A DNA stretch of 64,000 bases from Caldisericia bacterium. Its GTDB lineage: Bacteria > Caldisericota > Caldisericia > JAAYUI01. The stretch spans positions 144,851 to 208,850 of the forward strand of contig OY771555.1 of NCBI GenBank assembly GCA_963674785.1, in the 5' to 3' direction. Position numbers and translations under genes: made by a program. Positions 6,746 to 50,336 of the stretch are shown here, in pieces. Under the pieces are notes generated by a model, which was not told where the DNA came from, did not search any database, and saw nothing but the letters and a program-made list of their open reading frames with translations. Numbering within the stretch: the first letter of the stretch is position 1; each line of letters begins with the position of its first letter.

Positions 6746-6748
6746 TTT

Positions 6749-7132
6749 TTAGTTCTCTTCCGATTTTTTAGCTTTTGTTTCCTTTCTAACAATCCTGTCT
6801 TTAAGACGCTGTTTCTTACCAATCCTGTCTCTAAGGTAGTAAAGTTTTGCCCTTCTGATTTTACCGTGTCTGACAACTTCAATTTTGTCAACAAGCGGGG
6901 AATGTAGTGGATAAACTTTTTCTACTCCAAGGTTCTTTACAACTTTTCTTACAGTAAAAGTTTCAGCTACTCCGCCATTTTTTCTTGCAATCACGGTTCC
7001 TTCAAATATCTGAATCCTTGTTTTTGATCCTTCAGTAATTTTCTGATAGACCTTTACTGTATCACCGATCTCAAAACAATTCGGATCCTTCTTGAGCTGA
7101 TCCTTCACCACATCTCTAAGTAATGACTGCAT
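6749..7132 (-). CDS. rplS: 50S ribosomal protein L19
   Basis: Strong L19 resemblance (GDTVKVYQKI..., HSPLVDKIEVVRHGKIRRAKLYYLR). Start moved to ATG at 7130-7132, preceded by AGGAAGGA; the ORF-track start at 7168 is an upstream alternative. Confidence 0.9.
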   Translation of the reverse strand: MQSLLRDVVKDQLKKDPNCFEIGDTVKVYQKITEGSKTRIQIFEGTVIARKNGGVAETFTVRKVVKNLGVEKVYPLHSPLVDKIEVVRHGKIRRAKLYYLRDRIGKKQRLKDRIVRKETKAKKSEEN

Positions 7133-7242
7133 TTTATTCCTTCCTAATCTCCCTGGCAAAGGACACACCTAACCCAGGGCATACTTCTCATAACAGAATA
7201 TCGAATATATGGTAGTGTAGGACAATATTCAAGTATTTTGTT

Positions 7243-7794
7243 TTAAGGAATAAACTGAAAATGCCCAGGTGGCAGAAAAATTAAAAACGCTTTTCCAAGA
7301 ATCTTTGACTTTTTGACAGGTCCAAAGGCTCTCGAATCAAGTGAGTGTGAACGATTATCACCAATAACGTAGTACTCATCTTCACCAATCAACTCACCAG
7401 ATGCAGAATCACTGTTTTCGAGATTTGTTATTTCTCCAGTTGGGTCAGATAAAACATGGTCGCTGGTTTCAGAAATTCTTTCACCATCAATCCATATCTC
7501 TCCAGCTTTATATTCAATTCTTTCCCCGGGAAGCCCAACAACTCTTTTGATATAGTCATCTTTCCCAGTATATGGTGGTTCAAAAATAACAATATCCCCT
7601 CTTTTTGGTCCATCAAAAATATACGCCATTCTATTTACAAGGATATAATCACCATCATTTAGTGTGGGATACATTGAACTCATTCTCACCTGTCTGGGCT
7701 CAATTGCATAAACCCTGACAACCATCGCAAGACCAATAATCACAGTAAGAACAACTACCCACTCGAGAATTTTCCTCATCTGTTTACTTTTCAT
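7243..7794 (-). CDS. Signal peptidase I (paralog 2)
   Basis: 183 aa; SSMYPTL, YIKRVVGLPGERI, GDNRSHSLDSRAFGPV. Confidence 0.9.
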   Translation of the reverse strand: MKSKQMRKILEWVVVLTVIIGLAMVVRVYAIEPRQVRMSSMYPTLNDGDYILVNRMAYIFDGPKRGDIVIFEPPYTGKDDYIKRVVGLPGERIEYKAGEIWIDGERISETSDHVLSDPTGEITNLENSDSASGELIGEDEYYVIGDNRSHSLDSRAFGPVKKSKILGKAFLIFLPPGHFQFIP

Positions 7795-7807
7795 TTCACA
7801 CTAACTT

Positions 7808-8377
7808 TTACTTTATGAGACCAACATGGTCAAGAGGCCAAAAGACGAAAAAGGCTTTCCCAACAATCTGATTTCTTTTTATCGGGCCAAAACTTCTTGA
7901 ATCCATGGACACATTTCTATGGTCCCCAACAACATAATACTCATCTGAATTAAGCTTTATCCCTTTTTCAAGAATCTCGGAAGCAGAATTAAAATCTTGC
8001 TTATAGTCTGTTTTTTGTTTATCACTATTTTCAACAAAAAGTTTTCCATTGATATAAATCTCATCGCCTGAGACAGAAATGTATTCACCCGGAAGACCGA
8101 TAACCCTTTTTATTAAATCATCTCCAAAACCTTTATTTGGATGGAAAACTATCACATCTCCACGTTTTGGTTTAGATGTATAATAACACATCTTGTTTAT
8201 GAAGACTCTGTCATGATCTTCGATCGTTGGATACATAGAAGATTGTCTCACACCCCTTGGTTCAAATGCATAAATCCTTGTCACCAAAGTAAGGGATGAT
8301 GCAAAAACTATTGCCAAAACCCAACTTATAATCTCTTTTCTTAAACTACTTTTCATAAAAACCCCTCCAACAATCAA
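7808..8377 (-). CDS. Signal peptidase I (paralog 3)
   Basis: 189 aa; SSMYPTI, LIKRVIGLPGEYI, GDHRNVSMDSRSFGPI. Likely start at MKSSLRK (about 8356). Confidence 0.9.
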   Translation of the reverse strand: MIVGGVFMKSSLRKEIISWVLAIVFASSLTLVTRIYAFEPRGVRQSSMYPTIEDHDRVFINKMCYYTSKPKRGDVIVFHPNKGFGDDLIKRVIGLPGEYISVSGDEIYINGKLFVENSDKQKTDYKQDFNSASEILEKGIKLNSDEYYVVGDHRNVSMDSRSFGPIKRNQIVGKAFFVFWPLDHVGLIK

Positions 8378-8931
8378 AAAATACTCAGGTGATCAAGTGG
8401 CCACATAACTATCAAAACCTGACCCTTGATAAGTTCTTTCTCAATCGGCCCAAATGCTCTTGAGTCTCTGGAGACATCTCTGTTGTCCCCTAATACATAA
8501 TACTCGTCATCCCCCAGAATAATTCCATCGTCCGAGTTGCTTATTTGCATTCGGTTCGAGGCTTCAAAATTATGTCTAATGTTATCTTTGTCAAAAATCT
8601 TGCCATTTACAACAAGTTTACTTCCATTGTCTTCAATCACATCACCAGGTAAACCTACGACTCTTTTAACAAGGTCTTCTTCTTTATCAGGTGACCTGAA
8701 AACGATAATGTCCCCTCGATGGGGTTTTCCAAACGAATATGCAAGTTTTGAAACAAGGATAATATCCCCGTCCATAAGAGTTGGAAGCATTGATCTCTGT
8801 CTAACCTGTCTTGGTTCTAGAACGGATACTCTCAGGAAATAAAAAACTGTCAATACCAGAAGTATCGACACAGCCATTTTTATAGAATTTGCAAAAACTT
8901 TATTCATCTCTAAGACCATACAACCTATCAA
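8374..8931 (-). CDS. Signal peptidase I (paralog 4)
   Basis: 185 aa; RSMLPTL, LVKRVVGLPGDVI, GDNRDVSRDSRAFGPI. Likely start at MNKVFAN (about 8907). Confidence 0.9.
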   Translation of the reverse strand: MIGCMVLEMNKVFANSIKMAVSILLVLTVFYFLRVSVLEPRQVRQRSMLPTLMDGDIILVSKLAYSFGKPHRGDIIVFRSPDKEEDLVKRVVGLPGDVIEDNGSKLVVNGKIFDKDNIRHNFEASNRMQISNSDDGIILGDDEYYVLGDNRDVSRDSRAFGPIEKELIKGQVLIVMWPLDHLSIF

Positions 8932-9451
8932 GAATAATTGCTCCAGCAGCTCGAACCGAAAGATGATTAAACTCGGTTGGTCCGCAGATAGGATTCAGAA
9001 TATAATCACATCTTTTCATCGTCTCATCCGTCAAACCCCAACCTGTTCCAAGAATTATCATTATGTTTTCTAGTTCCAATTTTCTGAAATCACCAAAGCT
9101 TATTGAATTTTCATTTCTCTTTGCACTGGTGCCAATGATACGAGGTTTCGCACCTGCGATCTTTGTAAAGTCTTCAATCGCCAAATCGAAATTGGGAGTT
9201 ATTCTGCAAAGCTCAAGTGCATGTGATCTGTGTGGATTCCACGTCCTTCCACCACCAACATTCCAGAAACCAAGGATTCTCTCAACGATTCCTCTCTGAA
9301 GTGGAGCAGGATGAGTGATGTAAAACCTATCAATTCCAAATGTTCTACTTGACCTTGCAAGGTCGTGAATATCAAATGGAGTCACAGATGAAGCTTGAAT
9401 TTCATTTTTCCTGTCAAGTACCGGATGATGTATGAGGACGAGTGATTTCAA
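8900..9451 (-). CDS. SPOUT-superfamily methyltransferase-like protein (trmD-operon associated)
   Basis: 183 aa; motifs ILGTGWGL and HLSVRAAGAIILDRL resemble SPOUT proteins; start overlaps the trmD stop (ATGA). Family assignment is from memory and tentative. Confidence 0.5.
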   Translation of the reverse strand: MKSLVLIHHPVLDRKNEIQASSVTPFDIHDLARSSRTFGIDRFYITHPAPLQRGIVERILGFWNVGGGRTWNPHRSHALELCRITPNFDLAIEDFTKIAGAKPRIIGTSAKRNENSISFGDFRKLELENIMIILGTGWGLTDETMKRCDYILNPICGPTEFNHLSVRAAGAIILDRLYGLRDE

Positions 9452-10194
9452 AGTTTTTCCTCCAGCTCTTTTATCTCAGATATGATTTTTAGGAGAATTT
9501 TTTTGTCAGTATTACAAAGATCAGCATTTAAAAGGAGGTCGGGTCTCATCATAAGTGTTCTTCTGAGTGCCTGTTCAGTTCTCCACTGCGAGATCTTTTT
9601 GTGATTACCAGATCTGAGGATTTTTGGAACCTCTGATTCCAAAAGTTCTGCAGGTCTAGTGTATTGAGGATATTCGAGAAGATTGTCATCAAAAGATTCA
9701 ACATCAAGTGAATCGTGTTTGCCAAGAATGCCTGGAATCAATCTTGTGACGGCATCAGCCATCGCAAGTGCTGCAAACTCGCCACCTGTCATTATAAAAT
9801 CACCGAGTGATAACCAATCTGTGCAATAGGAGGAGACTCTTTCATCAATTCCTTCGTAGTGCCCACATATAAAAGTAATGGCGGGAGCGTTTGAAAGGTC
9901 TTTTGCAATTTTCTGGTTGAAGGTTTTCCCAGCAGGCGAGGTCAAGACAATCCTGGAATCCTCTGGTAAATCAAGTGAGTTAAGTAACCTGAAAATAGGT
10001 TCAGGTTTCATAAGCATTCCGGCACCACCACCATACGGTGTATCATCAGTTGTATTGTGCCGATCTCCCGAAAAATCCCTGATGTTTATTGCCTGAAATT
10101 CAAGGAGGCCAGCCTCTACTGCCCTCCCCATTATTGAAACTCCACAAGAGTTTTCAAAAAACGACGGGAAGGTCGTTGCAAAGACCAGCCTCAA
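9448..10194 (-). CDS. trmD: tRNA (guanine37-N1)-methyltransferase
   Basis: 248 aa; motifs DDTPYGGGAGM and ICGHYEGIDERV; TGA stop. Confidence 0.9.
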   Translation of the reverse strand: MRLVFATTFPSFFENSCGVSIMGRAVEAGLLEFQAINIRDFSGDRHNTTDDTPYGGGAGMLMKPEPIFRLLNSLDLPEDSRIVLTSPAGKTFNQKIAKDLSNAPAITFICGHYEGIDERVSSYCTDWLSLGDFIMTGGEFAALAMADAVTRLIPGILGKHDSLDVESFDDNLLEYPQYTRPAELLESEVPKILRSGNHKKISQWRTEQALRRTLMMRPDLLLNADLCNTDKKILLKIISEIKELEEKL

Positions 10195-14440: not shown

Positions 14441-16684
14441 ATGAGAAGTCAAAGAGCGAGAATAGCATTCGTATTGTTTTTGGCAATCTCGCTTGCCTTT
14501 GCGCCCTACTCTGCTTCCGCAAGATCAATCTCTTGGAATATGTTTGGTTTCAATGCAAGCCATACATTTGCAACAGATGAGCAGATTTCCACAGACTTAT
14601 CAGTCGACTGGATGTATGATACTGGAGGAGGAGTTGTTGCAACTGCAACCCCGTGTTACGAATCTGGGAGATTTTACGTCCCTCAAGCATCGGGCATGAT
14701 CAGTTGTTACAATGAGGAAACGGGAAAGAGATTGTGGAGATCAAAGCTTTCTTCTGCCCCAATCGTTTCGAAACCAAAACCCGTTGGTGGATACCTAGTA
14801 ACCACTTCTTATGATGGAAAACTCTACTCACTTTTTGCAAAAGATGGCAGCACCTACCGAAGCCGTGATATTGGATCACACACCTCAACCTCTCCTGTTG
14901 TGAGTAATGGGTATATCTTCACTGTCACAGATGAAGGTGAACTTGCCAAATGGACAATAAATGGTGTTTTCAAGGTTCAACAAAAAAATATAGAATCGCA
15001 AGTAAAATTAGATACTGACCCTGTCGTAACGAGAAAAGGGATAGCTATTGCAACAAACGATGACAAGATAAAATGTTTCGACATAAGATGGGGTAAAAAT
15101 CTTGAACTTAAATGGGAACGCTCAATTGCCATTCCATCTGGATCGAACTCCATGACCGAGACTGCCGATGGAATTTTGACAGTTGATTCTGATGGGATAC
15201 TTCATTATCTAAACTGGGACAATGGTAAAGATATCTGGGCTCTTCCTCTTGGTGAAGAGGTTCTATCAGGGATCATAACTGACTCTGGGAATGCTTATCT
15301 TGCAACAATGAGTGGTAATGTTCACTCAATATCAATTTCAGGTGGACGTTCTGATTGGATGAGAAGCCTCAAAGAAGAGGTTGTAAGCTCAAATCTTTCC
15401 ATCTCTGGTGGCAAGCTTTATGTCGGCAGCAAAAGACCTGCGAGACATTTGCACTGTTTAACATTGACGAGTAGCTCACTTTGGAACGAATGGTTCGAAA
15501 TGCCGTTTGGATGTAATATCTCTGCGGGGCAAAACGGCGTGCTTGTTATCCCAACAAGTGGTCAGGGTCAATATTTATCTCTATCGACATCAGATACCAT
15601 CTGGAAGTGTGATGTTGGAGGGCTTTCAGAAAGTGCACCAGTAGTCGACGGCAACCAAGTATTTTTCACTCTAACGGATGGTTCAGTTAGATCGATCAAC
15701 TCAGACAATGGAAGACTTATTTGGAGAAAAGATTTTGAAACACAAATAAATTCATCTCCTGCAATTGGAAACGGCAAGATAGTGCTTGCCCCAAGCAACA
15801 AACCTGTTGTGTGTCTGGACTCAAAAAATGGCAGGGAATTATGGCAAACAAATCTTTACAAGTATGTTGGCTCTGCACCAACCATCTATGGTAACACTGT
15901 ATTTGTTGGGGCATGGGATGGACTTGTGTACTCGTATGACCTTCAAACAGGCAACCCTGAAAGACAATACAAAACCTACGGACAGATAACTTCCTCCCCG
16001 ACGATCACAAGAGACGGTGTATTTGTTGGATCACACGACAGATTCTTCTACAAATTTCACAGAATTAACGGGAACAATGAGTGGCTTTATCCAACAGGAA
16101 AAGTTAAGAGAACCTGTGCTGAATCAAACAGGAACGGTTTTGTAATCTCTGAGAACACTATAACCTCACTTGACATGAAAAAGAGTCACGTCAGCTTGAA
16201 TTGGAGCCGCAAATTTGACTCTTTGGTCATCGCTGAACCCGCCTATAGCCAGACTCACCTTTTTGTAATGACTGCTGATGGCTATGTTACATGTATTGAC
16301 CAGAACGAGGATAATGGGGAAACCTATGTGTGGAAAAAGAAGCTTTCTCTGGATGGTTCTTACAAGAGCATTATTTTATGCCGAGACAGATTATGCATTT
16401 TGACCGGAAAATCCATTTATATTTTGTCCGCCGAGACAGGTAAGGAATTGTGGAATTATAAGCGAGGAATCAATATTACAGGGATGGTTCTCTCAAATGG
16501 CAAACTCATAATCTCAACACAGTCTGGTTCAATTGTCTGCATGAGTCCAACTCAAAATGTAAACGTACAAAAACCAGACAAGCTTCCATCCGCAGAGTAC
16601 ACACTCGACCCAAAATCCAAAGAGGATGTAATTAATGAAGCAATTCAAAACAAAACAACACCTGACCAAATCATGGTTTGGTAG
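14441..16684 (+). CDS. Secreted PQQ-type beta-propeller repeat protein
   Basis: 747 aa; signal peptide MRSQRARIAFVLFLAISLAFAPYSASA; repeated propeller-blade motifs (ETGKRLW, KNGRELW, AETGKELW). Confidence 0.75.
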   Translation: MRSQRARIAFVLFLAISLAFAPYSASARSISWNMFGFNASHTFATDEQISTDLSVDWMYDTGGGVVATATPCYESGRFYVPQASGMISCYNEETGKRLWRSKLSSAPIVSKPKPVGGYLVTTSYDGKLYSLFAKDGSTYRSRDIGSHTSTSPVVSNGYIFTVTDEGELAKWTINGVFKVQQKNIESQVKLDTDPVVTRKGIAIATNDDKIKCFDIRWGKNLELKWERSIAIPSGSNSMTETADGILTVDSDGILHYLNWDNGKDIWALPLGEEVLSGIITDSGNAYLATMSGNVHSISISGGRSDWMRSLKEEVVSSNLSISGGKLYVGSKRPARHLHCLTLTSSSLWNEWFEMPFGCNISAGQNGVLVIPTSGQGQYLSLSTSDTIWKCDVGGLSESAPVVDGNQVFFTLTDGSVRSINSDNGRLIWRKDFETQINSSPAIGNGKIVLAPSNKPVVCLDSKNGRELWQTNLYKYVGSAPTIYGNTVFVGAWDGLVYSYDLQTGNPERQYKTYGQITSSPTITRDGVFVGSHDRFFYKFHRINGNNEWLYPTGKVKRTCAESNRNGFVISENTITSLDMKKSHVSLNWSRKFDSLVIAEPAYSQTHLFVMTADGYVTCIDQNEDNGETYVWKKKLSLDGSYKSIILCRDRLCILTGKSIYILSAETGKELWNYKRGINITGMVLSNGKLIISTQSGSIVCMSPTQNVNVQKPDKLPSAEYTLDPKSKEDVINEAIQNKTTPDQIMVW

Positions 16685-28117: not shown

Positions 28118-29281
28118 ATGAAGCGTTTCGTTACATTTGCACTTATTCTTTTCCTCGCACTTGGAGTCTTTGTCTCGTGTGGTGCTGAAAAAAAGGTGGA
28201 TACAGAACCGACACCAGCAGACGTCACACCAGCAGAACTCCCTCTTTTGAGAGTGGGACACGTCAATCAGGATCATCACCTTGCACTCTACGTCGCAGCA
28301 CTAAAAGGCGAATTCTTTAAGGATCAAGGTGTCTGGATGACAGAGATCAAACCTAAAGAAAGATACACACTCCACACAGAAAATGGAGCTATCGCTGAGG
28401 TTCAACTTGTCAAATCTAAAGGTGGTTCAGAGATGACAAACAACCTCCTTGCAGGTCTTTTTGATATTGGCTTTGGTGGAGTTCCTGCAGTTATGAGTGT
28501 TGTTGATAAAGGAAAAGATGTCAGGATTCTGATGCCTTTGCAAAACGCTGGCGACCAGCTCATCGTAAAAAAAGATATGCCAGTCGAAAACTGGGAAGAG
28601 TTTGTAGAATACGTAAAAAATAACGAAACACAGCTGAAACTCGGATACAAAGCCCCAACTGCAGTTCAATACATCGTTGCTCAAAAGGCATTTACAGAAG
28701 TTGGAATCACACAAACAGAAGACCCAACAAATACAGATGCAATGGTTCTTTGGATCAATCAAAAGGGTCAAAATAACATGACCACAAATCTGGCTGCAGG
28801 TCAAGTTGATGGGTTTGTAGCAAATCAACCAACACCGGCACAAGCGATCATATCTGATGTAGGAAAATTTATCACTGAACTTTCTGTATTGCCACCAGAT
28901 GGAATGTGGAACCATCACCCATGCTGTATGGTTTGCAGCAATGAAAAGGTCAAAACAGAATACCCAGAGGAAACAAAACAGTTCCTTAAACTCATCATGC
29001 TTGCAACAGACCACATAAATGACGACATGGATGATGCAATCGAAATTGCCTACGAATTCCTCGGACAAAAAGAAGGGGTTGAACACTTATCCATTCCAAC
29101 TGTATACTACAACTGCGATGACGATGAAGTTTGGAGAGGTGGAGTTGCAACATGGGCAGTTGTTATGAATGAAATCGGAAAATATACAGGAGAACTAAAG
29201 GATATCAACGATGAAAGAGCAGTTGATCTCTGTGTTGATTTCACATTCCTTCACGAACTTCAAAAGGAGTTAGGAAAATAG
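28118..29281 (+). CDS. ABC transporter substrate-binding lipoprotein (NMT1/SsuA/ThiY-like)
   Basis: 387 aa; lipobox FVSC; periplasmic-binding fold resemblance; unusual WNHHPCCMVCSN Cys/His cluster. Confidence 0.8.
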   Translation: MKRFVTFALILFLALGVFVSCGAEKKVDTEPTPADVTPAELPLLRVGHVNQDHHLALYVAALKGEFFKDQGVWMTEIKPKERYTLHTENGAIAEVQLVKSKGGSEMTNNLLAGLFDIGFGGVPAVMSVVDKGKDVRILMPLQNAGDQLIVKKDMPVENWEEFVEYVKNNETQLKLGYKAPTAVQYIVAQKAFTEVGITQTEDPTNTDAMVLWINQKGQNNMTTNLAAGQVDGFVANQPTPAQAIISDVGKFITELSVLPPDGMWNHHPCCMVCSNEKVKTEYPEETKQFLKLIMLATDHINDDMDDAIEIAYEFLGQKEGVEHLSIPTVYYNCDDDEVWRGGVATWAVVMNEIGKYTGELKDINDERAVDLCVDFTFLHELQKELGK

Positions 29282-29313
29282 ACCGACAAAAGATTTCTAA
29301 AATTTTATGGAGC

Positions 29314-30123
29314 GTGGGTGGAGCAATTGTTCTACCCCTGCTTCTTTTTCTTGTTTGGGATTACAGTGCTGCAAGACTTGGCTCATCAACTCTGCTTCCC
29401 AGAGTATCCGATGTTTTTGATGTGGTTTTGCATCCCACAGAAGACCTAATCAGACAAGGCACCCTGCTCTTCCATGTCTATGTTTCATCGATTCGGGTAT
29501 TGATGGGTTTTGTGATAGGATCGTTGCTTGCCATAGTTCTTGGAATGATAATGGGTTTATCAGACAAAGTAAGGCATTTTGTCACACCATTCATCGAGAT
29601 ACTAAGACCGCTTTGTCCTGTTGCCTGGATTCCCTTCGCGATAATTATCTTCGGTGGAGCGACCCTTTCAAACACATTTGGATACAAGTTTACTGATTCG
29701 ATTCTTGATTATGTTCAGATTGCTCAACTATTCATTATCGCCTGGGGAGCATTCTTTCCGGTATTAATAAACACGATTGATGGCGTCAGTGGTGTCAGAA
29801 AAATATGGGTTGAAACAGCAAAAACGATGAACGCATCCAAACTACAGATTTGGTCAAAGGTGATTCTCCCCGCAAGCTTCCCATCCATTTTGACTGGGCT
29901 TAAGGTTGGACTTGGTATCAGCTGGATGGTTGTAATTGCAGCCGAGATGTTTCCGGGTCCTTCTGCTGGAATCGGGTATCTGATGATGGAGGCATACGCA
30001 CAAACTGAAATCCATATTCTCGCTGCCGGATTAATCACAGTTGGAATCATCGGAGCGCTTCTGAACGCCATTTTAGCGGTTATCCATAAAACCTTTGCGG
30101 GTTGGCAGGCGAAGGAACGATAA
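29314..30123 (+). CDS. ABC transporter permease (NitT/TauT-type)
   Basis: 269 aa; six TM segments with the binding-protein-dependent permease signature region. Confidence 0.85.
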   Translation: MGGAIVLPLLLFLVWDYSAARLGSSTLLPRVSDVFDVVLHPTEDLIRQGTLLFHVYVSSIRVLMGFVIGSLLAIVLGMIMGLSDKVRHFVTPFIEILRPLCPVAWIPFAIIIFGGATLSNTFGYKFTDSILDYVQIAQLFIIAWGAFFPVLINTIDGVSGVRKIWVETAKTMNASKLQIWSKVILPASFPSILTGLKVGLGISWMVVIAAEMFPGPSAGIGYLMMEAYAQTEIHILAAGLITVGIIGALLNAILAVIHKTFAGWQAKER

Positions 30124-30125
30124 AC

Positions 30126-30935
30126 ATGATAAAACTCAGTGCAATATATAAAGATTTTGATAAGCAGGAAGTTTTGAAAAACATCAATTTGAAATTCTTA
30201 CCTGGGGAGTTCAACTGTATTCTTGGGCCAACCGGTTGCGGAAAAACAACTCTTTTGAGAATTATTGCAGGGCTTCTAAAACCAGATTCAGGTGTAGTCA
30301 AAATCGAGAAGCCATCGATTTCAATGATTTTCCAACAGCAAACCCTTTACCCATGGAGAAATGCACTCTCAAATGTTTGTCTTCCACTTGAGTTCAAGGG
30401 ATACTCAAAAAAAGAACGCATCAAAATGGCAATGGCTAGATTAGCCGAGGTTGATGTAGCAGATGCAGCCAAAAAAAAGGTCTTCCAGCTATCTGGTGGA
30501 ATGCAGCAGAGAGTACAGATTGCAAGGGCTTTGGTCTCTAATCCATCAGTACTTCTTGCTGACGAACCATTCGGTTCACTTGATGAAAAAACAAGATACA
30601 AGCTTCAAAAAAAACTCAGAGAGATAACCCTTTCAAACAATACAACAACAGTTTTTGTAACTCATAATATTGAAGAGGCAATTTATCTTGGAGATAGAAT
30701 TATTGTAATTGGAAACAAAGGGGTTCAAGCAGATTTTGATCTTACCACCCCACACCCTAGAGACAGACTTTCGAAATGGTTTACAAGTAAAATTCTTGAA
30801 GTAAGAAATGTTTTTGAAACACTCATCGAAGATGAAGATACAACTGATGGGATTGAAAAAAGCGAAGAACCCGAAGAAAATAACGACCCATTCAAAACAA
30901 TGAAACTCGATGTGACAACAGATGAAAATGAATAA
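30126..30935 (+). CDS. ABC transporter ATP-binding protein
   Basis: Walker A GPTGCGKTT, signature LSGGMQQR, Walker B LLADEP. Start moved to ATG at 30126, right after the permease stop. Confidence 0.9.
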   Translation: MIKLSAIYKDFDKQEVLKNINLKFLPGEFNCILGPTGCGKTTLLRIIAGLLKPDSGVVKIEKPSISMIFQQQTLYPWRNALSNVCLPLEFKGYSKKERIKMAMARLAEVDVADAAKKKVFQLSGGMQQRVQIARALVSNPSVLLADEPFGSLDEKTRYKLQKKLREITLSNNTTTVFVTHNIEEAIYLGDRIIVIGNKGVQADFDLTTPHPRDRLSKWFTSKILEVRNVFETLIEDEDTTDGIEKSEEPEENNDPFKTMKLDVTTDENE

Positions 30936-31956
30936 AGAAGAAGAGTTCAGGCTTACAAAATTTGCCGGATGTGCTGGTTGAGAGAGTAAGTGGGGGCCGG
31001 GAGCTCTCAAGAAGTTACTCAGTGACTTACCTGTTTTTGAGTCACCAGATTTAATCACTCGTGACGTCAATAAAGCTGATGCTGCCGTTTATAAAATCAA
31101 TGATGATTTATACGGTATCTATACAATTGATGTTTTCTCACCAATTGTTGATGACCCTGAAGACTTTGGTGCAATCGCCTTTGCAAATTGTATTTCTGAT
31201 GTTTGCGCAATGGGTGGGACACCAGTTCTTGGGCTAAATGTTTGTATGTTCCCAGCAGCAGCTCCAGTTGAAAAACTCAACCTTATACTTAAGGGTGCAT
31301 CTGAGTCAGCCCAAAAAGAAGGGGTAATAATTGCCGGTGGACACACAACCAAAAATGATGAACTCCACTACGGACTCTCAGTTTATGGGACTGTAAAACC
31401 AGTAGATCTCAGGCTTTCATCAAATGCAAAACCCGGAGACCATATCATCCTTACAAAAGGACTCGGGACGGGTATCCTTTTTGCAGCAAAAGATAGGGCT
31501 GAGGGCGTTAACTGGCAATCAGCAATTGATTCGATGAAACAGACATCCGTTATTGCGTCAAAAATCCTAACCGAATTTGGATGCAGGTGTAGCACCGATA
31601 TTACAGGTTTTGGGTTTGTACCACATCTTCTTGAAGTACTCGAAGAGTCAAGGGTAGCAGCCAAAATTAATCCAGAATCTCTTCCGCTTCTTCCTGGCGT
31701 GATTGACTTTTCTAGATCATTTGCCTGTCCGGTTTTATCAACAAACATGGAACTTGCCGGGGCAAAGTTCGACTCTGGCAAACATGATCCTAAATGGATC
31801 AACATCTGCTTTGACGCCCAAACTTCTGGTGGCTTTATTGCATTTGTTTCAGAAGAAAATGCCGGTAAGTGTTTAGAAAAGCTTATTGATGCAGGATATC
31901 AGGCAGCAGATGTTGGTGAGGTTGCTGAGGGTGAGTCGAAAATTACATTGGTTTAG
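30922..31956 (+). CDS. selD: Selenophosphate synthetase with in-frame UGA (selenocysteine) at 30979-30981
   Basis: Frame of ORF 31210..31956 extended upstream: MKMNKEEEFRLTKFAGCAG[U]ESKWGPGALKKLL...DAAVYKI...SPIVDDPEDFGAIAFANCISDVCAMGG. UGA aligns with E. coli SelD Cys17 and the Lys three residues on with Lys20. Start ATG 30922 (or 30928) overlaps the ATPase stop. Confidence 0.85.
30982..31008 (+). promoter_or_regulatory. Candidate SECIS hairpin immediately 3' of the selD UGA
   Basis: GAGAGU-AAGUGGGGGCCGGGA-GCUCUC: 6-bp lower stem with G-rich apical region starting directly after UGA. Hand-folded, not energy-evaluated. Confidence 0.35.
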
Positions 31957-31982
31957 AGATATTCCAACCTGGGCTCGATCAA

Positions 31983-33812
31983 TTAATGGTTTCTGATTGG
32001 CCAAATTGTTTGTGTTTTGATAAAGTCTTCGTAACCAGACACATATCCAAATCTTGACCTATTATAATAATTTGAAGGCATCAATTCAGACTCCAAAACA
32101 TCGATAACTCCATTGCTAAGGAACTCCAATCTTACAAATTCCAAATCTTCCCTGCTGTCCTTTAATCCCCTGAAATATTCAAAATCACTACTCAATAAAA
32201 CAGAACCTCTTTCTGGTAATCTAAAGGTCAAGAGTTTTTTCTCACCAAATTTTAAATCTGTTATTTCTATTGATTCAGAAAACCTAGAATAAATAGGAGC
32301 AGCTTCCTTTAACTCATCCTTATAAGTATACCTCTCGTGCCCCCAACCCATCAAATAAAAAACTCCTGAAAGATTCTCACCAAATCTATCCCCTCTAGTG
32401 TTAACTATTTCGAAAGTTATAGTTTCAGTACCCTGATCTATCATTTTTATTGAAAATGTTGGGCATGGTTTCGTTTCATACAAATAGTTATAAAAATCAC
32501 CACCTGCGCCAAAATGGAGAGTTCTATCCTGATAGATTATTTGAGGATCTCGAATCCACTGAACTGAATCAACCATAGATGAATACCAATACATAGGCAT
32601 ACTATCGATATTAACCTGGAATATATCCGAATCGATTTCTGGGAATTTTTCATTGTGAAAAATATTCTTAGCAACGGAAAAGTCAATACATGAGATCCTG
32701 TCTAAATACCTGATACCACTTAAATATTCGGGGTTTTCCAGGCTATCTATGTATAAATCATCTCCAATTGCAGTAATAATTTTCCCTTTAAAATGTTTGT
32801 TTATTCCACCATTTTTTACAATCTCTATTCTTTCCATCAATTCGTCATAGTAGACAATCGTTGATGGTGTGAAGATAAACTCTTTAGGTTTTGAGCTTAA
32901 AACAAGTTTATTTGATTCACCTGTTGTTAGATTTATCGATAAAACTAGAAATCTTTGTTTCCCTGATGCCCTTTCTTCCAAATCGAAGACTTTTCCAAAG
33001 AAATCATTACATACTATATCTGTCTCATCTTCATCTATATCATCGATCCATGGACTTATCCTGTATTTTTCCAAATCGATTTTTTCGTATCCAAACTCCA
33101 GGATTTCACCAGTCCTCAAATCAATTTTCCGCATAATTCCATTTTCATGGTACGAATAACAGAAGAATCCTTTGTGGTAATATGATCCAGCGAAAAAATA
33201 ATCCTCTTCATTAACATCAAAACTTACCTCTCCTCGCATACCACCATATGATTCAACACTAACTGTATAAGCATCTTCATTTTCCTCTACATCCACCCTG
33301 CATCTAACTCTAGCATTTGAATCAGCATCATTAATCTCACTACTTGTAACACTATCTGAATAATCAAATGTCAAATCGTCCTTTAACGCAAAAGCACAAA
33401 CAAAAGAATCACTGCACCAGTTTGACTCATGTGAGTAGTCATAAGCATAAATTTTCCCATCGATGTTTTTGCCACCTGATTCTGCATTTGCTAAAACTCT
33501 TTTTATCAATTCACCAGTTTTCAAATCATAAATATCAAACTTCCCATAATCTCTCGTAAACAAAAAATCACCAGCCAAAAACAAAGTTTCGATATGGTTT
33601 CTATCACAATATGGGATACTCAATACCTCTTCTTGGCTCTCAAATGAAATCACCTTGTAGCATTGATTCCTAAATGTCCCCTCATCTTCGATGAATTGAG
33701 CTGATCTCATACAGTGATACTTCTCATTAAAATCATAGGTAACGCTCTGACAACCATTGTTTTCAAATTGAATCCTTTTTATAATTTGCCCATCTTTGCC
33801 CAATAAAAACAT
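31983..33812 (-). CDS. Hypothetical protein (609 aa)
   Basis: Long ORF, no recognised motifs, no obvious signal peptide. Confidence 0.6.
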   Translation of the reverse strand: MFLLGKDGQIIKRIQFENNGCQSVTYDFNEKYHCMRSAQFIEDEGTFRNQCYKVISFESQEEVLSIPYCDRNHIETLFLAGDFLFTRDYGKFDIYDLKTGELIKRVLANAESGGKNIDGKIYAYDYSHESNWCSDSFVCAFALKDDLTFDYSDSVTSSEINDADSNARVRCRVDVEENEDAYTVSVESYGGMRGEVSFDVNEEDYFFAGSYYHKGFFCYSYHENGIMRKIDLRTGEILEFGYEKIDLEKYRISPWIDDIDEDETDIVCNDFFGKVFDLEERASGKQRFLVLSINLTTGESNKLVLSSKPKEFIFTPSTIVYYDELMERIEIVKNGGINKHFKGKIITAIGDDLYIDSLENPEYLSGIRYLDRISCIDFSVAKNIFHNEKFPEIDSDIFQVNIDSMPMYWYSSMVDSVQWIRDPQIIYQDRTLHFGAGGDFYNYLYETKPCPTFSIKMIDQGTETITFEIVNTRGDRFGENLSGVFYLMGWGHERYTYKDELKEAAPIYSRFSESIEITDLKFGEKKLLTFRLPERGSVLLSSDFEYFRGLKDSREDLEFVRLEFLSNGVIDVLESELMPSNYYNRSRFGYVSGYEDFIKTQTIWPIRNH

Positions 33813-36796: not shown

Positions 36797-37450
36797 GTGA
36801 AAAGATTATTATCTATTGTGCTTATTGGAATGCTTTTATCAGGAGTGGTAGCCCTAGGAGTTACATTTGCAGAGGAAGAAACTCTTCCCGAGAAACCAGA
36901 ACGACCAGAAACAATCAGATTAAAGCTCTGGGTTAACACTTCAAAATTTGTGAAGGATGATGTTCAGATTACTGATCTTGACCCTGCACCGACAACAAAA
37001 TCACCACCTCTTCCATCAGAGCTTGCAGGAAACACATACATGCCTGTAAGAGCAGTTTTTGAAGCTCTTGGGGCAGATGTGCAGTGGATTGATGACGACA
37101 GAAGGGTAGACGTGCAGCTCGGAAGAATAAAGCTTCAGCTTTGGGTTGACAATGTATCGACGGCAAAAATCAATGACGAAGAGGTGACCATATACAATGC
37201 CGACGAATCAAAGGTTCTCTACCCAACGATTGTAGATGGAAAAACAATGCTTCCATTAAGATTTGCCTGTGAATCACTTAAAGCTGATGTTAACTGGATT
37301 GAAAGTGAATCGGCAATCGAAATCGTATACCCCTCTGAAACGATGGAAGAGCCACCAGCAGATGGCGAAGAAAGACCTGAACCTCCAGGAGATGGCGAAA
37401 CTCCGCCAGACAAACCAGAACCACCAGAAGATGGAGGAGAACAGCCGTAA
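36797..37450 (+). CDS. Secreted copper-amine-oxidase N-terminal ('stalk') domain protein
   Basis: 217 aa; GTG start; signal peptide; stalk-domain motifs (YMPVRAVFEALGADVQWIDDD..., MLPLRFACESLKADVNWIESE); Pro/Glu-rich tail. Confidence 0.75.
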   Translation: MKRLLSIVLIGMLLSGVVALGVTFAEEETLPEKPERPETIRLKLWVNTSKFVKDDVQITDLDPAPTTKSPPLPSELAGNTYMPVRAVFEALGADVQWIDDDRRVDVQLGRIKLQLWVDNVSTAKINDEEVTIYNADESKVLYPTIVDGKTMLPLRFACESLKADVNWIESESAIEIVYPSETMEEPPADGEERPEPPGDGETPPDKPEPPEDGGEQP

Positions 37451-37577: not shown

Positions 37578-38411
37578 TCATTTTTTTAGATAAACAAAAT
37601 AGTAGATACCGCCAATAAATATAGCCCCACCTACGATATTTCCAAGTGTGACAGGTACGAGGTTATTAACAAGAAAAGTTGACCATGTAAGACTACTTGC
37701 TCCACCACCCAGCCCACTTGCAGCTAAAACCCCAGCATTTCCTTTCAGAAACAATCCCAAAGGTATGAAATACATGTTTGCAACACTGTGCTCAAAACCA
37801 CTCGCAACAAACGCCATTATTGGGAAGTATATCCCAGCAATTTTACTAACTAAATCTTTTCCTGAGATAGCCAACCACACAGCGAGAACAACAAGTATGT
37901 TGCAGGCAACACCTCGTAAAAATGCCTCCAGAAAACCTAGGTTTACCTTTGTGACAGCAATATTCAGAGCATATGTCCCTACCCCATAATCACCCATTTT
38001 GTAAAGACCACCAAAGTAGACAAGGATAACCAAAAAAATAGAACCCACAAAGTTAGCCGAGAAAACGATTGACCAGTTTCTAAATAAACCAGAAAGAGCT
38101 ATTTTACGCTTAAAAAGAGAAATACTCATCAATGAATTACCAGTAAAAAGTTCTGCTCCACCAAGCACAACAAGAACAAGTCCAACACTAAAAACACTAC
38201 CTCCGATAAACTTGCTCAATCCGAGTCCAAAATACCTAGAAACATCATGGGTGACAACAGTATAAAGATGTGATCCAAATCCAATGTATAACCCAGCTAA
38301 AATTCCCGACAAAAAAAGTTTGGAAAAAGAAAGTTTTGATTTATCTTTGCCAATATCAACAAGCTTTTGTGCTACTTCACATGGAGTTAAATAGTTTATA
38401 TTAATACACAC
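37578..38411 (-). CDS. Formate/nitrite transporter (FNT) family channel
   Basis: 277 aa; FNT pattern (LFLSGILAGLYIGFG..., GAELFTGN..., FVASGFEHSVANMYF). Substrate not assignable. Confidence 0.85.
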   Translation of the reverse strand: MCININYLTPCEVAQKLVDIGKDKSKLSFSKLFLSGILAGLYIGFGSHLYTVVTHDVSRYFGLGLSKFIGGSVFSVGLVLVVLGGAELFTGNSLMSISLFKRKIALSGLFRNWSIVFSANFVGSIFLVILVYFGGLYKMGDYGVGTYALNIAVTKVNLGFLEAFLRGVACNILVVLAVWLAISGKDLVSKIAGIYFPIMAFVASGFEHSVANMYFIPLGLFLKGNAGVLAASGLGGGASSLTWSTFLVNNLVPVTLGNIVGGAIFIGGIYYFVYLKK

Positions 38412-38746: not shown

Positions 38747-40280
<1,534 letters not shown>

Positions 40281-40668
40281 CATCTTATATATGTATTATA
40301 TATAAAGTGTTATATTAAATAACTAGGTGCTCTCACACCTATATTGTCATTCTGGAATTGCACCGGATATTGACTTTCATGTGTTAATTGCTATCTAGTT
40401 TTCAAACTACTACATTTCCCAGAAGTGAATCGAGGAAAGTTCAGTTTACCACAAAAGGTGACCACCGTCAAGCAGTTACCCTTTCGGCCAACGAGTAATG
40501 AAATATAACCCAAAAAGTTATAGAGTCAAGGAATGGATATAACATGAATAATATATTGCATTCATGGGACTTTCTTGAGAATCAAATTCAATAATCGAAA
40601 GGTTCCTTTAACCATCATTCGAAAGATTTTCACCAAAACGCTTCACATTCAACGATTAAATCGAATCC

Positions 40669-45438: not shown

Positions 45439-46038
45439 ATGAAAAAAATTGGTACAATTACGCTTATAGTTTTATTAGTTTTAGTATTTTTCCCATCCTA
45501 TTCCCACAATGAAGAAGTGATAGCAGACGTTCTTGAATCATGTCCCGAAATCAGATCTTTTGGGGTTCTTCCAGATAGCATATATGTGAATACCAATGTC
45601 GCTCAAACCCAAAGTGGCGTTGTGATGCACGATTTCTATGGAGATATCGAACTTACAACGCGGTCAATAAACACAGGGAGTTATAAATGCGATATCACAT
45701 GTGAATTTACATATACGGATGTTAACTACACCCATCTCTATTGGAGAGTTATCATTTATGATGGAAAAGTTCACGATGTATGGCTTGACGGAAAAAAGAT
45801 CAAACCAAAACTCGAAGAAGATGACGGTCTCATGTGGATATCCACGGAAATTGATGAAGACTTCGAGTATGGTGAGCATTCGATGAGATTTGTCTACAGT
45901 GTCGATTTTGAGCAATCAAATCCCGACAACACAAGATATCAATGCTTTGTAAAACGGATACCATGCTCATATGTACGAGGGATGGTGGCCAACGCATTTT
46001 GCACAGCAGTACACAGACATAATTCATACCTCATTTGA
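45439..46038 (+). CDS. Secreted N-terminal segment of a split zincin-like metallopeptidase (possible frameshift)
   Basis: 199 aa with signal peptide MKKIGTITLIVLLVLVFF; overlaps the next ORF by 68 nt in a different frame. Confidence 0.55.
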   Translation: MKKIGTITLIVLLVLVFFPSYSHNEEVIADVLESCPEIRSFGVLPDSIYVNTNVAQTQSGVVMHDFYGDIELTTRSINTGSYKCDITCEFTYTDVNYTHLYWRVIIYDGKVHDVWLDGKKIKPKLEEDDGLMWISTEIDEDFEYGEHSMRFVYSVDFEQSNPDNTRYQCFVKRIPCSYVRGMVANAFCTAVHRHNSYLI

Positions 46039-48784
46039 TCTTAAAATGCCAAACACATGGTTCATGATGGGAGATTTTATCCCTGAAGAATACAGAGATG
46101 AACCTAGTCCAACAGGTGAATATCACATGGAACAATACGAATCATATCCTCCTATCATGAGGATATGCTGCGGTGAATATGAAGTCACAAAGTATGAAGG
46201 TGACACCTATGATGTCAGGATGTATGCCTTCAGGGGCCAATCTGGAGATGCCGAATATCTAATTGGCACAAGCAAAGATTCAATCGAGTTTTTCTCGGAA
46301 TACTACGAACATCCTTGCACAAATGATTTCTTTATTGCCGCACAAACTGCCGGCAGAGGAAGCGGAAGAGGGATGGACGGCGGATTCATAATGGATACCA
46401 ACTATCTGAATCGTCAGAATATGGCTGAGGATTTTATATCTCATGAGGTATCACATGTTTGTTGGTGGGGAGGAACCGGAGTAATGGGGAATACTTCTCA
46501 ACCAAACTTAAGATTTCTAAACGAAGCAACCGCAGAATTCTCAAGTCTTCTGTTCTGTGAGCAGGTACTCTCAGAACAGAAGGGTTTTGAAGAGTGGAAG
46601 CTTAGGATGGAGTGGTACAGAGACACGAAAGACTATTACAAATCAAAAGGGTGGACAGAACCTCCAATAATAAACCCGGCATCTGCAGACAATTTTTCAA
46701 TCACGTACTATAAAGGTGCATGCGTTTTCTGGGCTTTAAGATATTACATGGGTGAAGAGAATTTTAGAAATGCGATGATCGAGATTTTCAATAATTACGC
46801 TAGATCAAATGCTCCAAGCGATGATGAGTGGTACAGACCATCAATTGCCGATTTTTACAACACATTCAAAAAACATGCGAAAAGGGATATCAGCGGATTC
46901 TGGAGCACTTATGTTGGAAGCACTGAACTCCCAAGGCTTGATTATTCTATTAACCGAATCAGATATAAAGGAGTAATCTATGATTCAGTAAACCTGAAAA
47001 ATCTTACAGAACACAAATCACCATTAATGGTTCATGTGTACCACTCAGACGGCACATATGAAGAAGTGATTCTGGAAGAACTTGACCAATCATTTAGGAT
47101 CGATGGGCATGCCTCAGGAGTGTTATTTCATGATTACATGGGATCAATGCCAGAGCCAGACGATATTTCAAATAAAATGAATACGGCGTCTATTGCTGCT
47201 GTTGTTTCCTGGGAACCGCCAACTATCTTCGTATCCAAAAAAGATGGAGAAGAGTACGTAACTCGAGCTGAAAAATGGGTTGAAAAAACTGGTGGAGAGG
47301 TTGTAATTGATGATTTTACAGAACTGCCTTTTAAAAAGCCTATTCTTCTCGTCGGACCATCAGCAATTATCGAGTTTGCAGCCGAAGAGTACAAAAATCT
47401 CCGAATCAAAGACACAGAAGATGGATTAAATTGGCTTGGAAAAAAATTTGAAGGCCGCTTTAGTACAATTGTTGTCACATATGACAAGGATGATATTGAG
47501 AGACCAATTATAATCGATACTGGTGTTGGAGAAATCCCAGAAAACCTTTCATATACAGGGTTATACACAACACAAGACAACCGAATAGTGATGGGATATA
47601 ACTACCTGGATCCTGAAACGGAAGAAATCCCGGGGCCAGATGCACTTTGTCAGCTTCCATGGGAAAAAATTGATTCACAGGTTGACAAATCAGCGTTCTA
47701 CGTTTCTTTTACAAACCCGAGACCTTTTGAAATCTCCTACAATGGTTTCTCATTCGAAGACTTTGAGTTTAAGGATATTGAACAGAAGTTTGAGCCAGAG
47801 ACACTTTCCTCTGAGGTGCTGCTTGATCTCTCAGGCGGAAAAACTCAAAATGTCAAAATATCACACTCGGATAGATTTGTAACTGAGGAATGGGATTTCA
47901 ATATCAGTCTTGATCCCAATATAGATGAGTTTAATGGACTAAAAAAGATAATTATTCCAGAAATAGTCAAAGGTGAATCCATTGAGATAAAATGGATTGA
48001 ACAAATGGAGTACATATACGCTATTGACGATTTTAAAATGACTGACTGGAAGATGGGCTCAAGATTAACGCTAACCGATCTAGCAAAGGGAAGACATACA
48101 CTCAAAATGCTCTTCAACGATAACGGTTTACTTAGCCCTCTAATCGAAAAAGAATTTGTGTCAGGTGTGAGTGAACCAGAGCTTCAACTGGACAAAACAT
48201 TCGCCCTGTGGAAAAATGGAGAAATCAGAATTACAGGCAAGGCAACCCCTGGGGTTGAATTGATTCCACCAGGTGAAATCGATGAGGAAGGGAACTTTGA
48301 AATAATTGTTTCTACCAATGAAATCCCTCAAATCATATCCATTACTGCAAAAAACGAATATGGTCTGGAGACATCAAAAAGCATAAGCATCATCAAGTTC
48401 ATCAAACTTGACATGTTCCTGGGAAAGGAAAATGTAACATCTGATATTGGAGAGACCTGGACTCTTGATGTTCCACCCCAGCTTGTAAATGGGTCAACAT
48501 ATGTTCCGATGAGATTCATTGGTGAAAGACTGGGTGCTGATGTCTCCTGGGTTGCTGATGAAAAGAAAGTTATCTACAGCCTTAGGAACACCCAAATCGA
48601 GATATGGATCGGTAATGACATCTCAAAAGTCAACGGTATCGAAACAAAGATGCCCGGAGAGCCAGTGATCATATCCGGAAGAACGCTTGTACCGGTAAGA
48701 TTTGTATCTGAAGCGTTGGGTGCAAAAGTCACCTGGTGTGGTGAAGAGAAGAAGATAACTATAGAGTATCCGAATTTGGAGTAG
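45971..48784 (+). CDS. Zincin-like metallopeptidase (HExxH...E) with C-terminal copper-amine-oxidase N-terminal domains
   Basis: 937 aa; HEVSHVCWWGG...NEATAEF gluzincin signature; C-terminal stalk repeats (YVPMRFIGERLGADVSWVADEKK, LVPVRFVSEALGAKVTWCGEEKK); no signal peptide of its own. Confidence 0.7.
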   Translation: MYEGWWPTHFAQQYTDIIHTSFDLKMPNTWFMMGDFIPEEYRDEPSPTGEYHMEQYESYPPIMRICCGEYEVTKYEGDTYDVRMYAFRGQSGDAEYLIGTSKDSIEFFSEYYEHPCTNDFFIAAQTAGRGSGRGMDGGFIMDTNYLNRQNMAEDFISHEVSHVCWWGGTGVMGNTSQPNLRFLNEATAEFSSLLFCEQVLSEQKGFEEWKLRMEWYRDTKDYYKSKGWTEPPIINPASADNFSITYYKGACVFWALRYYMGEENFRNAMIEIFNNYARSNAPSDDEWYRPSIADFYNTFKKHAKRDISGFWSTYVGSTELPRLDYSINRIRYKGVIYDSVNLKNLTEHKSPLMVHVYHSDGTYEEVILEELDQSFRIDGHASGVLFHDYMGSMPEPDDISNKMNTASIAAVVSWEPPTIFVSKKDGEEYVTRAEKWVEKTGGEVVIDDFTELPFKKPILLVGPSAIIEFAAEEYKNLRIKDTEDGLNWLGKKFEGRFSTIVVTYDKDDIERPIIIDTGVGEIPENLSYTGLYTTQDNRIVMGYNYLDPETEEIPGPDALCQLPWEKIDSQVDKSAFYVSFTNPRPFEISYNGFSFEDFEFKDIEQKFEPETLSSEVLLDLSGGKTQNVKISHSDRFVTEEWDFNISLDPNIDEFNGLKKIIIPEIVKGESIEIKWIEQMEYIYAIDDFKMTDWKMGSRLTLTDLAKGRHTLKMLFNDNGLLSPLIEKEFVSGVSEPELQLDKTFALWKNGEIRITGKATPGVELIPPGEIDEEGNFEIIVSTNEIPQIISITAKNEYGLETSKSISIIKFIKLDMFLGKENVTSDIGETWTLDVPPQLVNGSTYVPMRFIGERLGADVSWVADEKKVIYSLRNTQIEIWIGNDISKVNGIETKMPGEPVIISGRTLVPVRFVSEALGAKVTWCGEEKKITIEYPNLE

Positions 48785-48788
48785 GATA

Positions 48789-50336
48789 CTACTTTTTATA
48801 GGTAAGGCGGATCTCTTTGGTTTCTGCAATCCAATCAACATTGCAGCCATGAGATTCGCCGAGAAATCTGAATGGAACCATTGTTCTACCATTGATGATG
48901 CTCGGAACAACTCCCGGGTTTGGGTCAATCTCTACAATCTTTCCATCAACTCTCGCCTGGTTTTTCCCAATCCAAAACTCAACAATTTCGCCTGCAAAAT
49001 AGCTTGTAACTTTTCGTTCAGCAGCATCCCATCTGACCCATCCACCAAGGGGCTCAATTACGTATCTTGCGGGGATGAGTGTCCTGTCGTGAGCAATAAC
49101 AGGTTCAGAGTCTATTGAGATATTCGTACTGTCAATCGTTAGCGATGATTGACCAAGCTGGAAACCAAGATATTTGGCACCAGCACCAAAGGAACAGATT
49201 TTACCCAACTCATCACCAATAAATATTGAACCATCTGAAATGGCTGGAGCTGATGTAAACCCTCTAGTATGCTCTATCTGCCAAAGAGTCTTCCCACTCT
49301 TTGAGTCAATACAGTAGATGACCCCCTGAGTATCAGAAGAGCCGCTTACCTTAGTCGCAAAGTATGTTTTGCTTGATGAGATCGGTGCTGAGACAATCTC
49401 CTCGCCAACCTTCAAACTCTTAATCCATTTCGATGAACCATCAGAAGTCTTGATGGCCTTCAGGAAGTTTTTCGAACCTATCTTTACACCAACTATAAGT
49501 GAATCATCATATATTGAAGGAAGAGTTTCGATTGAATCACCCACATCAATGTTCCATTTTTCTGAACCATTTGAGGAGCTTAAACAAAACATCTCACCAC
49601 TTTCAAAAGACACAAAACAATTGTCTCCTGAGACCGTAACACTCTGCTCAAAAAGCCCTTTACTGAGAGTTTTTTTCCATATCTTTGAACCTGTTCTATA
49701 ATTAAAACAATGAACACTTTTTTCTGAAGCTACATAAACTCTACCGGCAGAGTATGAAGGTATCCCAGCAGTTTCTCCAGAAAGCTGTTCTGTCCAGTCC
49801 TTCTTTTGTTGAAGAGGGTTTTTTAGATAGGTTATATTAGTAATTCCATTTTGGGTACTCGTATAGAAAAGACCCCTTTCAGGTACAACAAGCACAGAAT
49901 CAACTTTTGTATTTGTTTCAATAGAAAATCGTTCTCGACCATTTTTAAGATAAAAAACATCAATCGATCTCCACCCAGGAACAAAAATCAAGTCGTTCCA
50001 TATGGCCGGGATTGTATCAGAGTCAACCGAACCGAGAGTCTTTGACCATTCTTTTCGGCCGTTGCTGCTTATACAATTCAACCTGCCACCATCTGAAATA
50101 TATACAATTTTATCACCATAAACGATAGGCGGAGAAAGGGTTGCAGCATTTGTGTCATACTCCCAATATTTTGCGAATCGATTCAATGACAGCCCACAGG
50201 AGTCATCAAATGCACCTGTCCTTGCAGGGTTGCCTCGGTGCATCTCCCAATTGCAGCCGATAGCAAAAGTACAGACAGGATTGATTGTCAATACTGCCAG
50301 CAAAAATAGTATTATCGCGACTCTTTGAACGTTCAT
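48789..50336 (-). CDS. Secreted PQQ-type beta-propeller protein with C-terminal copper-amine-oxidase N-terminal domain
   Basis: 515 aa; signal peptide; propeller-blade motifs (RTGSKIW, NGSEKW, DGSSKW, KSGKTLW); C-terminal stalk motifs (LIPARYVIEPLGGWVRWDAAERK, MVPFRFLGESHGCNVDWIAETK). Confidence 0.75.
   Translation of the reverse strand: MNVQRVAIILFLLAVLTINPVCTFAIGCNWEMHRGNPARTGAFDDSCGLSLNRFAKYWEYDTNAATLSPPIVYGDKIVYISDGGRLNCISSNGRKEWSKTLGSVDSDTIPAIWNDLIFVPGWRSIDVFYLKNGRERFSIETNTKVDSVLVVPERGLFYTSTQNGITNITYLKNPLQQKKDWTEQLSGETAGIPSYSAGRVYVASEKSVHCFNYRTGSKIWKKTLSKGLFEQSVTVSGDNCFVSFESGEMFCLSSSNGSEKWNIDVGDSIETLPSIYDDSLIVGVKIGSKNFLKAIKTSDGSSKWIKSLKVGEEIVSAPISSSKTYFATKVSGSSDTQGVIYCIDSKSGKTLWQIEHTRGFTSAPAISDGSIFIGDELGKICSFGAGAKYLGFQLGQSSLTIDSTNISIDSEPVIAHDRTLIPARYVIEPLGGWVRWDAAERKVTSYFAGEIVEFWIGKNQARVDGKIVEIDPNPGVVPSIINGRTMVPFRFLGESHGCNVDWIAETKEIRLTYKK

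Follow-up and report, generated by a model that had tools for sequence, protein, structure and literature searches.

The selD frame and its in-frame UGA

The window analyzed here, a 64-kilobase (kb) stretch of DNA from a Caldisericia bacterium (contig OY771555.1), carries on its plus strand a four-gene unit at 28118-31956, in which genes for the binding protein, permease and ATPase of an ATP-binding cassette (ABC) importer are followed, in last place, by selD, the gene for selenide,water dikinase (SelD). When we read the region 30700-32100, the selD frame between ATG 30922-30924 and TAG 31954-31956 proved to be interrupted by a single stop, TGA 30979-30981, as an earlier note on this DNA had described, and direct translation from 30922 agreed with the string quoted there: MKMNKEEEFRLTKFAGCAG, the in-frame stop (*), then ESKWGPGAL.... 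Read through this one UGA, the full-length coding sequence (30922..31956, plus strand) comprises 344 codons from ATG 30922 or 342 from ATG 30928; the TGA is codon 20 counted from the former, and a selenocysteine (Sec) encoded there would be residue 18 with the latter. On the evidence of reading frame, profiles, structural alignment and comparative sequence set out below, the gene very probably encodes a Sec-type SelD, with UGA presumably read as Sec.

Current gene calls miss the N-terminal part of this protein. A mechanical list of open reading frames (ORFs) returns 31210..31956 (248 amino acids, plus strand) as the sole ORF for selD, because no in-frame ATG, GTG or TTG lies between the TGA and 31210; the earlier note had likewise recognized that the ORF track held just the C-terminal 248 codons. 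This fragment begins at Met97 of the full-length frame, so that half of the AIRS N domain is missing from it. The public protein P0001 is 100% identical to it, and the deposited annotation therefore truncates selD in the same way. N-terminally short calls are also found in all 15 of the closest database homologues (49-69% identity), with starts near query residues 30-55.

The 344-residue translation, with the TGA position filled, scored 267.7 bits against the NCBIfam SelD model TIGR00476 (cut-off 125) and under the own cut-offs of two narrower SelD models, NF002098 and NF010705. Pfam placed the AIRS N domain (PF00586) at residues 52-158 with 74 bits and the AIRS_C domain (PF02769) at residues 170-339 with 50 bits, and the best solved structure was E. 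coli SelD (3u0o; E 3e-45, residues 6-335). These matches bear out the assignment of the whole frame, upstream segment included, to the SelD family, which the earlier note had made and would have given up had the upstream part failed to align to the SelD N-terminus in a profile search: residues 10-313 align to TIGR00476 positions 1-310 of 311, so that the match begins at profile position 1.

Alignment to 3u0o was gap-free over the N-terminal part (query residue n corresponding to E. coli n-3), placing U20 on E. coli Cys17 and K23 on Lys20, exactly where the earlier note had put the TGA and the lysine three residues on. Cys also stands at the TGA position in the Aquifex aeolicus SelD structure 2yye, and the motif [C/U]-x-x-K is present in 79 of 80 SelD loci. 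Further along, D53, D70, N89 and D93 aligned to E. coli D51, D68, N87 and D91, and the TDITGFG motif (D226) matched E. coli TDVTGFG; all five residues are invariant within the clade. Their E. coli counterparts (D51, D68, N87, D91 and D227) are assigned to the ATP/metal site of SelD in the structural literature. D53, D70, N89, D93 and the Sec/Lys loop all lie upstream of Met97; the 248-residue fragment, which begins in the middle of the N domain and has none of them, therefore cannot be the functional product.

We next compared the codon itself among relatives by fetching their DNA and extending the frames upstream, which yielded eight independent lineages (L081/L087, L084/L088, L086, L089, L090, L091, L092 and L001), all Caldisericia/Caldisericales metagenome-assembled genomes (MAGs) at 49-69% identity; a DNA-pattern scan of metagenomes added two loci, both duplicates of lineages already included. 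TGA occupies the homologous codon in 8/8 of them, within the shared peptide F-[RK]-L-[TS]-x-x-[AS]-x-C-[AV]-G-U-[EA]-S-K-W-G-P, so that neither faulty sequencing nor a nonsense mutation private to one genome can explain it. On the 5′ side of the TGA (alignment columns 6-14), third bases of fourfold-degenerate codons vary freely and the residues are kept; the upstream segment is therefore translated in this frame. Among 79 SelD loci of many phyla, 51 have TGA and 28 have TGT or TGC at the corresponding codon. Together with the Cys17 alignment, these comparisons mark the UGA at 30979..30981 (plus strand), in the motif C-A-G-U-E-S-K, as the predicted Sec codon.

A hairpin 3′ of the UGA

The earlier note had suggested that a selenocysteine insertion sequence (SECIS) hairpin starts immediately 3′ of the UGA. 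A hairpin is present, supported by folding and by conservation, and it starts 10 nt farther on: the 17-nt core (30992..31008, plus strand) pairs GGGGGC at 30992-30997 with GCUCUC at 31003-31008 around the loop CGGGA at 30998-31002, with an optional U-A closing pair between 30991 and 31009. We folded the segment and set it beside a bacterial SECIS (bSECIS) model, a comparison that the note had proposed. That model allows loops of 3-9 nt on stems of 4-16 bp and places the loop 16-37 nt from the UGA (PMC13188914, Fig. 2A legend); it also asks for G at the first two positions of the loop, with G or U next, and for a minimum free energy (MFE) of at most -7.5 kcal/mol (PMC13188914). The element at 30992-31008 fits all of these constraints, with a 5-nt loop, a 6-7 bp stem, a spacing of 16 nt and a 45-nt MFE of -12.9 kcal/mol.

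When the nine sequences are aligned, pairing is kept in 98% of stem cells. Two sequences have G-C in place of G-U at one stem pair, and there is one compensatory change, from G-C to U-A in L001, which is accompanied by an Ala-to-Asp replacement. Conservation of synonymous sites is a stronger test of the hairpin than this covariation. In 73 selD columns, eight or more of the nine sequences retain a fourfold-degenerate codon family, and the four columns whose third bases vary least (conservation 0.875-1.0) are the hairpin's Gly, Pro, Ala and Leu codons; the 69 columns outside the hairpin reach at most 0.78, and the mean of all 73 is 0.51. Because the synonymous sites of the hairpin are thus the most conserved in the gene, the RNA itself is under selection. 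When the same criteria were applied as a control to the 79 SelD loci, a compliant hairpin was found in 46 of 51 TGA-type genes vs 2 of 28 Cys-type genes, and the combination of a 16-nt spacing with a CGGGN loop recurs in Sec-type SelD genes of other phyla (L012, L024, L037 and L064).

The 47-nt MFE fold weakly suggests that the element may extend to 30984..31020 (plus strand), with a lower stem pairing 30984-30989 with 31015-31020 around the core. In the nine sequences, 68.5% of the lower-stem cells are paired and two pairs show compensatory changes; with pairing at that level, we do not claim a conserved lower stem, whose start would fall some 5 nt, or two codons, 3′ of the UGA.

The minimal E. 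coli fdhF element is a 17-nt stem-loop located 11 nt from the UGA (PMC8659212). The window element shares with it and with the consensus bSECIS a 17-nt upper stem-loop, here 10 nt from the UGA, and a G at loop position 2 followed by G or U, and its UGA-to-loop distance of 16 nt is the shortest that the range of 16-37 nt allows. Unlike the fdhF SECIS, however, it has no bulged U in the stem, and its loop is CGGGA rather than a G-U-containing one, relatives having CGGGU, CGUCG or CGUUG; its lower stem is poorly conserved in comparison with fdhF and the consensus. More broadly, the Sec-type SelD genes that we compared (L002-L080) fall into SECIS classes by UGA-to-loop distance, at 16 nt (CGGGN), 20 nt (GGA), 27 nt and 33 nt, of which the last two have G-U-N triloops on 7-9 bp stems, and each class goes with its own peptide context, for example G-P-G-D-L or D-L-A-Q-V-L.

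Decoding of the UGA

TGA is a normal stop codon in this window. Among the 43 non-overlapping ORFs that reach 150 codons or more, TGA closes 11, TAA 18 and TAG 14. The trmD gene (9448-10194, minus strand), which the earlier note had cited as an example of a real TGA stop, is one of those closed by TGA, and its Pfam match is complete. This usage, together with tight gene overlaps, indicates that UGA has not been reassigned. The nearest homologues are labelled Caldisericia and the window holds a bacterial 16S ribosomal RNA (rRNA) gene, neither of which gives grounds for expecting an altered code.

Three other accounts of the locus have to be weighed against Sec insertion. The TGA might have arisen by nonsense mutation or through a mistake in sequencing or assembly, leaving either a selD pseudogene or a codon that is truly TGT or TGC; a public annotation that holds the 248-residue fragment alone (P0001) and a window without visible Sec machinery would both fit. 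Yet eight independently assembled relatives carry TGA at the exact codon, purifying selection acts on the peptide both before and after it, a constrained hairpin follows and the frame has no other disruptions, and we give this account almost no credence. Equally hard to believe is a true product that starts at ATG 31210, with the upstream similarity as a relic: ORF finders do return that start, but Met97 falls in the middle of the AIRS N domain, the short protein would be without the Sec/Lys loop and the residues matching E. coli D51, D68, N87 and D91, and relatives preserve the protein sequence of the 96 codons upstream while differing at synonymous sites.

The third account accepts readthrough and assigns the UGA to an amino acid other than Sec, either through near-cognate or suppressor decoding (as Trp, Cys or Gly) or through lineage-wide reassignment. 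It draws on the failure to observe a transfer RNA for Sec (tRNA-Sec), selA or selB in the window and on the indirect nature of the case for Sec insertion. Against it stand the stop usage and tight overlaps described above, trmD included; the identity of the site, which is the known Sec/Cys catalytic position of SelD; and a hairpin that fits the SelB-dependent bSECIS model, of a kind that tracks TGA-type and not Cys-type SelD. We consider non-Sec decoding very unlikely.

Several observations do weigh against Sec decoding of selD. No selA, selB, tRNA-Sec or other selenium gene was found in the window, and none of these was found beside selD in Caldisericota relatives. No Shine-Dalgarno sequence precedes ATG 30922 or ATG 30928. 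The covariation of the hairpin was matched by 55 of 500 shuffles and rests on one compensatory event, which makes it statistically weak; folding of the single sequence could not be separated from shuffles (z = -1.15 and +0.68); and an Rfam E-value scan of 30850-31150 gave noise alone, with no match to a SECIS family. As to the machinery, ARAGORN and Rfam searches of the whole window found no tRNA-Sec, returning a tRNA-Val and a 16S rRNA as their sole matches, and ARAGORN found none in 11 scanned loci of the Caldisericota clade. Window ORFs of matching size were tried as selA or selB without a match, and the selD neighbours in L001 and L055 include neither gene. It can be soundly inferred that selA, selB and selC are present elsewhere in the genome.

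The earlier note had gone further and expected additional selenoproteins in the genome. These are possible, and they do not strictly follow, since SelD is the sole selenoprotein in some genomes (PMC1794560). Among all same-frame segment pairs split by a TGA in the window, we found no convincing interrupted gene outside selD.

For the start codon, five relatives are informative: from their only possible or most plausible start, Sec is preceded by 17 residues, which corresponds to ATG 30928. The open frame does extend to ATG 30922, where the earlier note had placed the start, and the relatives make ATG 30928 the likelier initiation site. Both candidates overlap the 3′ end of the upstream ATPase gene (stop 30933-30935), and the first gene of the operon has the Shine-Dalgarno sequence AGGAGG. 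The overlap, together with the lack of a Shine-Dalgarno sequence at selD itself, suggests that selD translation is coupled to termination of the ATPase gene.

If UGA is read as Sec, translation would thus start at ATG 30928 or 30922, probably by such coupling, insert Sec into the flexible N-terminal loop (C-A-G-U-E-S-K) and proceed to the TAG at 31956, and the product would be predicted to make selenophosphate from selenide and ATP. Because selenophosphate is needed for Sec-tRNA(Sec), the enzyme would depend on its own product. We infer the action of SelB, SelA and tRNA-Sec in this scheme, as well as Sec insertion and the translational coupling.

Sec-type SelD with an in-frame SECIS is well established. 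The protein shares with Sec-type bacterial SelD of Haemophilus influenzae and Aquifex aeolicus (2yye/2zod, the Sec-to-Cys form) the TIGR00476 family and two-domain AIRS signature, the Sec position in the N-terminal loop, the Lys at +3 and a SECIS in the coding region just 3′ of the UGA. What is specific here is the lineage and the loop motif C-A-G-U-E-S-K-W, which differs from the G-U-G-C-K type of the Haemophilus SelD loop; Cys three residues before Sec (C-x-x-U) is found in the window protein and in 36 of the 51 Sec-type loci compared. With the Cys-type enzyme of E. coli (3u0o), it has in common Lys20 and the ATP/metal-site Asp and Asn residues. E. coli SelD, however, has Cys17 (TGY) where the window has UGA, and for that reason neither carries a SECIS nor depends on its own product. 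By breadth of distribution, FdhA and SelD lead the bacterial selenoprotein families, and SelD ranks second among prokaryotic ones (PMC1794560, PMC13188914). Our literature searches found no link of a Caldiserica/Caldisericia-like lineage to selenocysteine or selenoproteins.

Other SelD architectures appeared in the comparison. In a Caldisericaceae MAG (L055, 3893-6103), a Cys-type SelD (GLGCACK) is fused to an N-terminal class-V aminotransferase domain resembling NifS and selenocysteine lyase, so that stand-alone Sec-type and fused Cys-type SelD both occur within Caldisericota. At L070 (5842-7446), SelD bears a C-terminal carboxymuconolactone-decarboxylase/AhpD-like domain (PF02627) with a CxxC motif, and PF02627-SelD fusions of about 530 amino acids recur in database matches P0020, P0026, P0062 and others. 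Gene surroundings vary as well: in L001, L090 and L091, selD lies between PEGA-domain proteins and a PQQ-like beta-propeller/Cu_amine_oxidN1 protein, and in L089 a beta-propeller protein is near selD and the upstream neighbour is without annotation. Many window proteins have domains of these PEGA, beta-propeller and Cu_amine_oxidN1 types (14441-16684, 36797-37450, 45971-48784, 48789-50336, 55572-57278 and 61441-63669), none of them beside selD.

The importer and other genes of the window

Elsewhere in the window, a complete bacterial 16S rRNA gene (38747-40282, minus strand) is accompanied by neither a 23S nor a 5S rRNA gene within the 64 kb, and the rRNA genes appear to be unlinked. Immediately downstream of it on the same strand lies a FocA-type formate/nitrite transporter gene (37578-38411, minus strand), 5.6 kb from selD; no fdh gene, for formate dehydrogenase, the commonest bacterial selenoprotein, is present in the window. 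Four tandem signal peptidase I (Peptidase_S26) paralogues of 183-194 amino acids occupy 6161-8931 (minus strand), an array followed by a gene for an S-adenosylmethionine (SAM)-dependent RNA methyltransferase and by trmD, with 4-nt ATGA gene overlaps. An RNase HII ORF (5593-6066, minus strand) encodes 157 amino acids and matches its Pfam model from position 34, so that either the mechanical ORF rule placed its start wrongly or the gene itself is shortened at the N-terminal end.

The three importer genes upstream of selD (28118..30935, plus strand) are of the NitT/TauT type and encode a lipoprotein binding protein (28118-29281), a permease (29314-30123) and an ATPase (30102-30935). The binding protein has a lipobox at Cys21 and the motif H-H-P-C-C-M-V-C, with Cys269 and Cys270 plus Cys273, and the one conserved Cys of the permease lies in R-P-L-C-P. 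The binding-protein family is tiny, with 32 matches at E <= 1e-10 among 5.8 billion proteins, within which P-C-C never varies and the His before it hardly does. Its predicted structure, with a predicted local distance difference test score (pLDDT) of 89.7, has the oxyanion-binding NrtA/CmpA/TauA/SsuA fold, and a profile search aligned the Cys motif to CCCFC, through which THI5 binds iron.

The same four-gene order, ending in selD, is found in L084 and in a member of the Sedimentisphaerales (Planctomycetota; L070), in which the binding protein shares 34% identity and SelD is of the Cys type. In the relative L081, the importer locus and selD lie apart, and three family members (L093-L095) adjoin an AlgE-like porin with selD not nearby, which rules out a universal linkage of this transporter family to selD.

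We also compared the importer with the Selenocysteine-Assisted Organometallic (SAO) system, whose components include SaoX, SaoP and SaoA (bioRxiv 10.1101/2022.07.06.499078). These were the best NCBIfam matches of the three genes, at 31 bits vs a cut-off of 300 for SaoX, 156 vs 295 for SaoP and 180 vs 360 for SaoA, and with all three scores far under the cut-offs we rejected an identity with SAO. The window binding protein resembles SaoX in being a lipoprotein and in having a double-Cys motif; the permease, however, has neither Cys nor Sec near the gating position reported for SaoP, and the other genes of SAO are absent beside the window importer. As judged from these profile matches and motifs, the importer is a distant relative of SAO within the NitT/TauT group and not a member of it.

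No high-affinity selenium transporter had been identified according to a 2022 review (PMC9312934). It is conceivable, if rather unlikely, that the importer is dedicated to taking up a selenium species and supplies it straight to SelD. The tiny binding-protein family with its oxyanion-binding fold and THI5-like Cys motif, and the placement of the binding-protein gene in a unit directly upstream of selD in two distant phyla, would favour such a role; the family members beside the AlgE-like porin and the separate loci in L081 speak against it, and the Cys motif could equally serve a metal.

The value of these findings lies mainly in annotation. SelD is truncated in the public record of this genome and in those of all 15 nearest homologues, so that a functional enzyme is missing from metabolic reconstructions of this Caldisericia-like lineage. 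If the UGA is read as Sec, selA, selB and tRNA-Sec are predicted in the genome, possibly along with more mis-called selenoproteins. Beyond this correction, the sole lead of wider reach is the importer with its di-cysteine binding protein, which is a candidate for the missing selenium uptake system.

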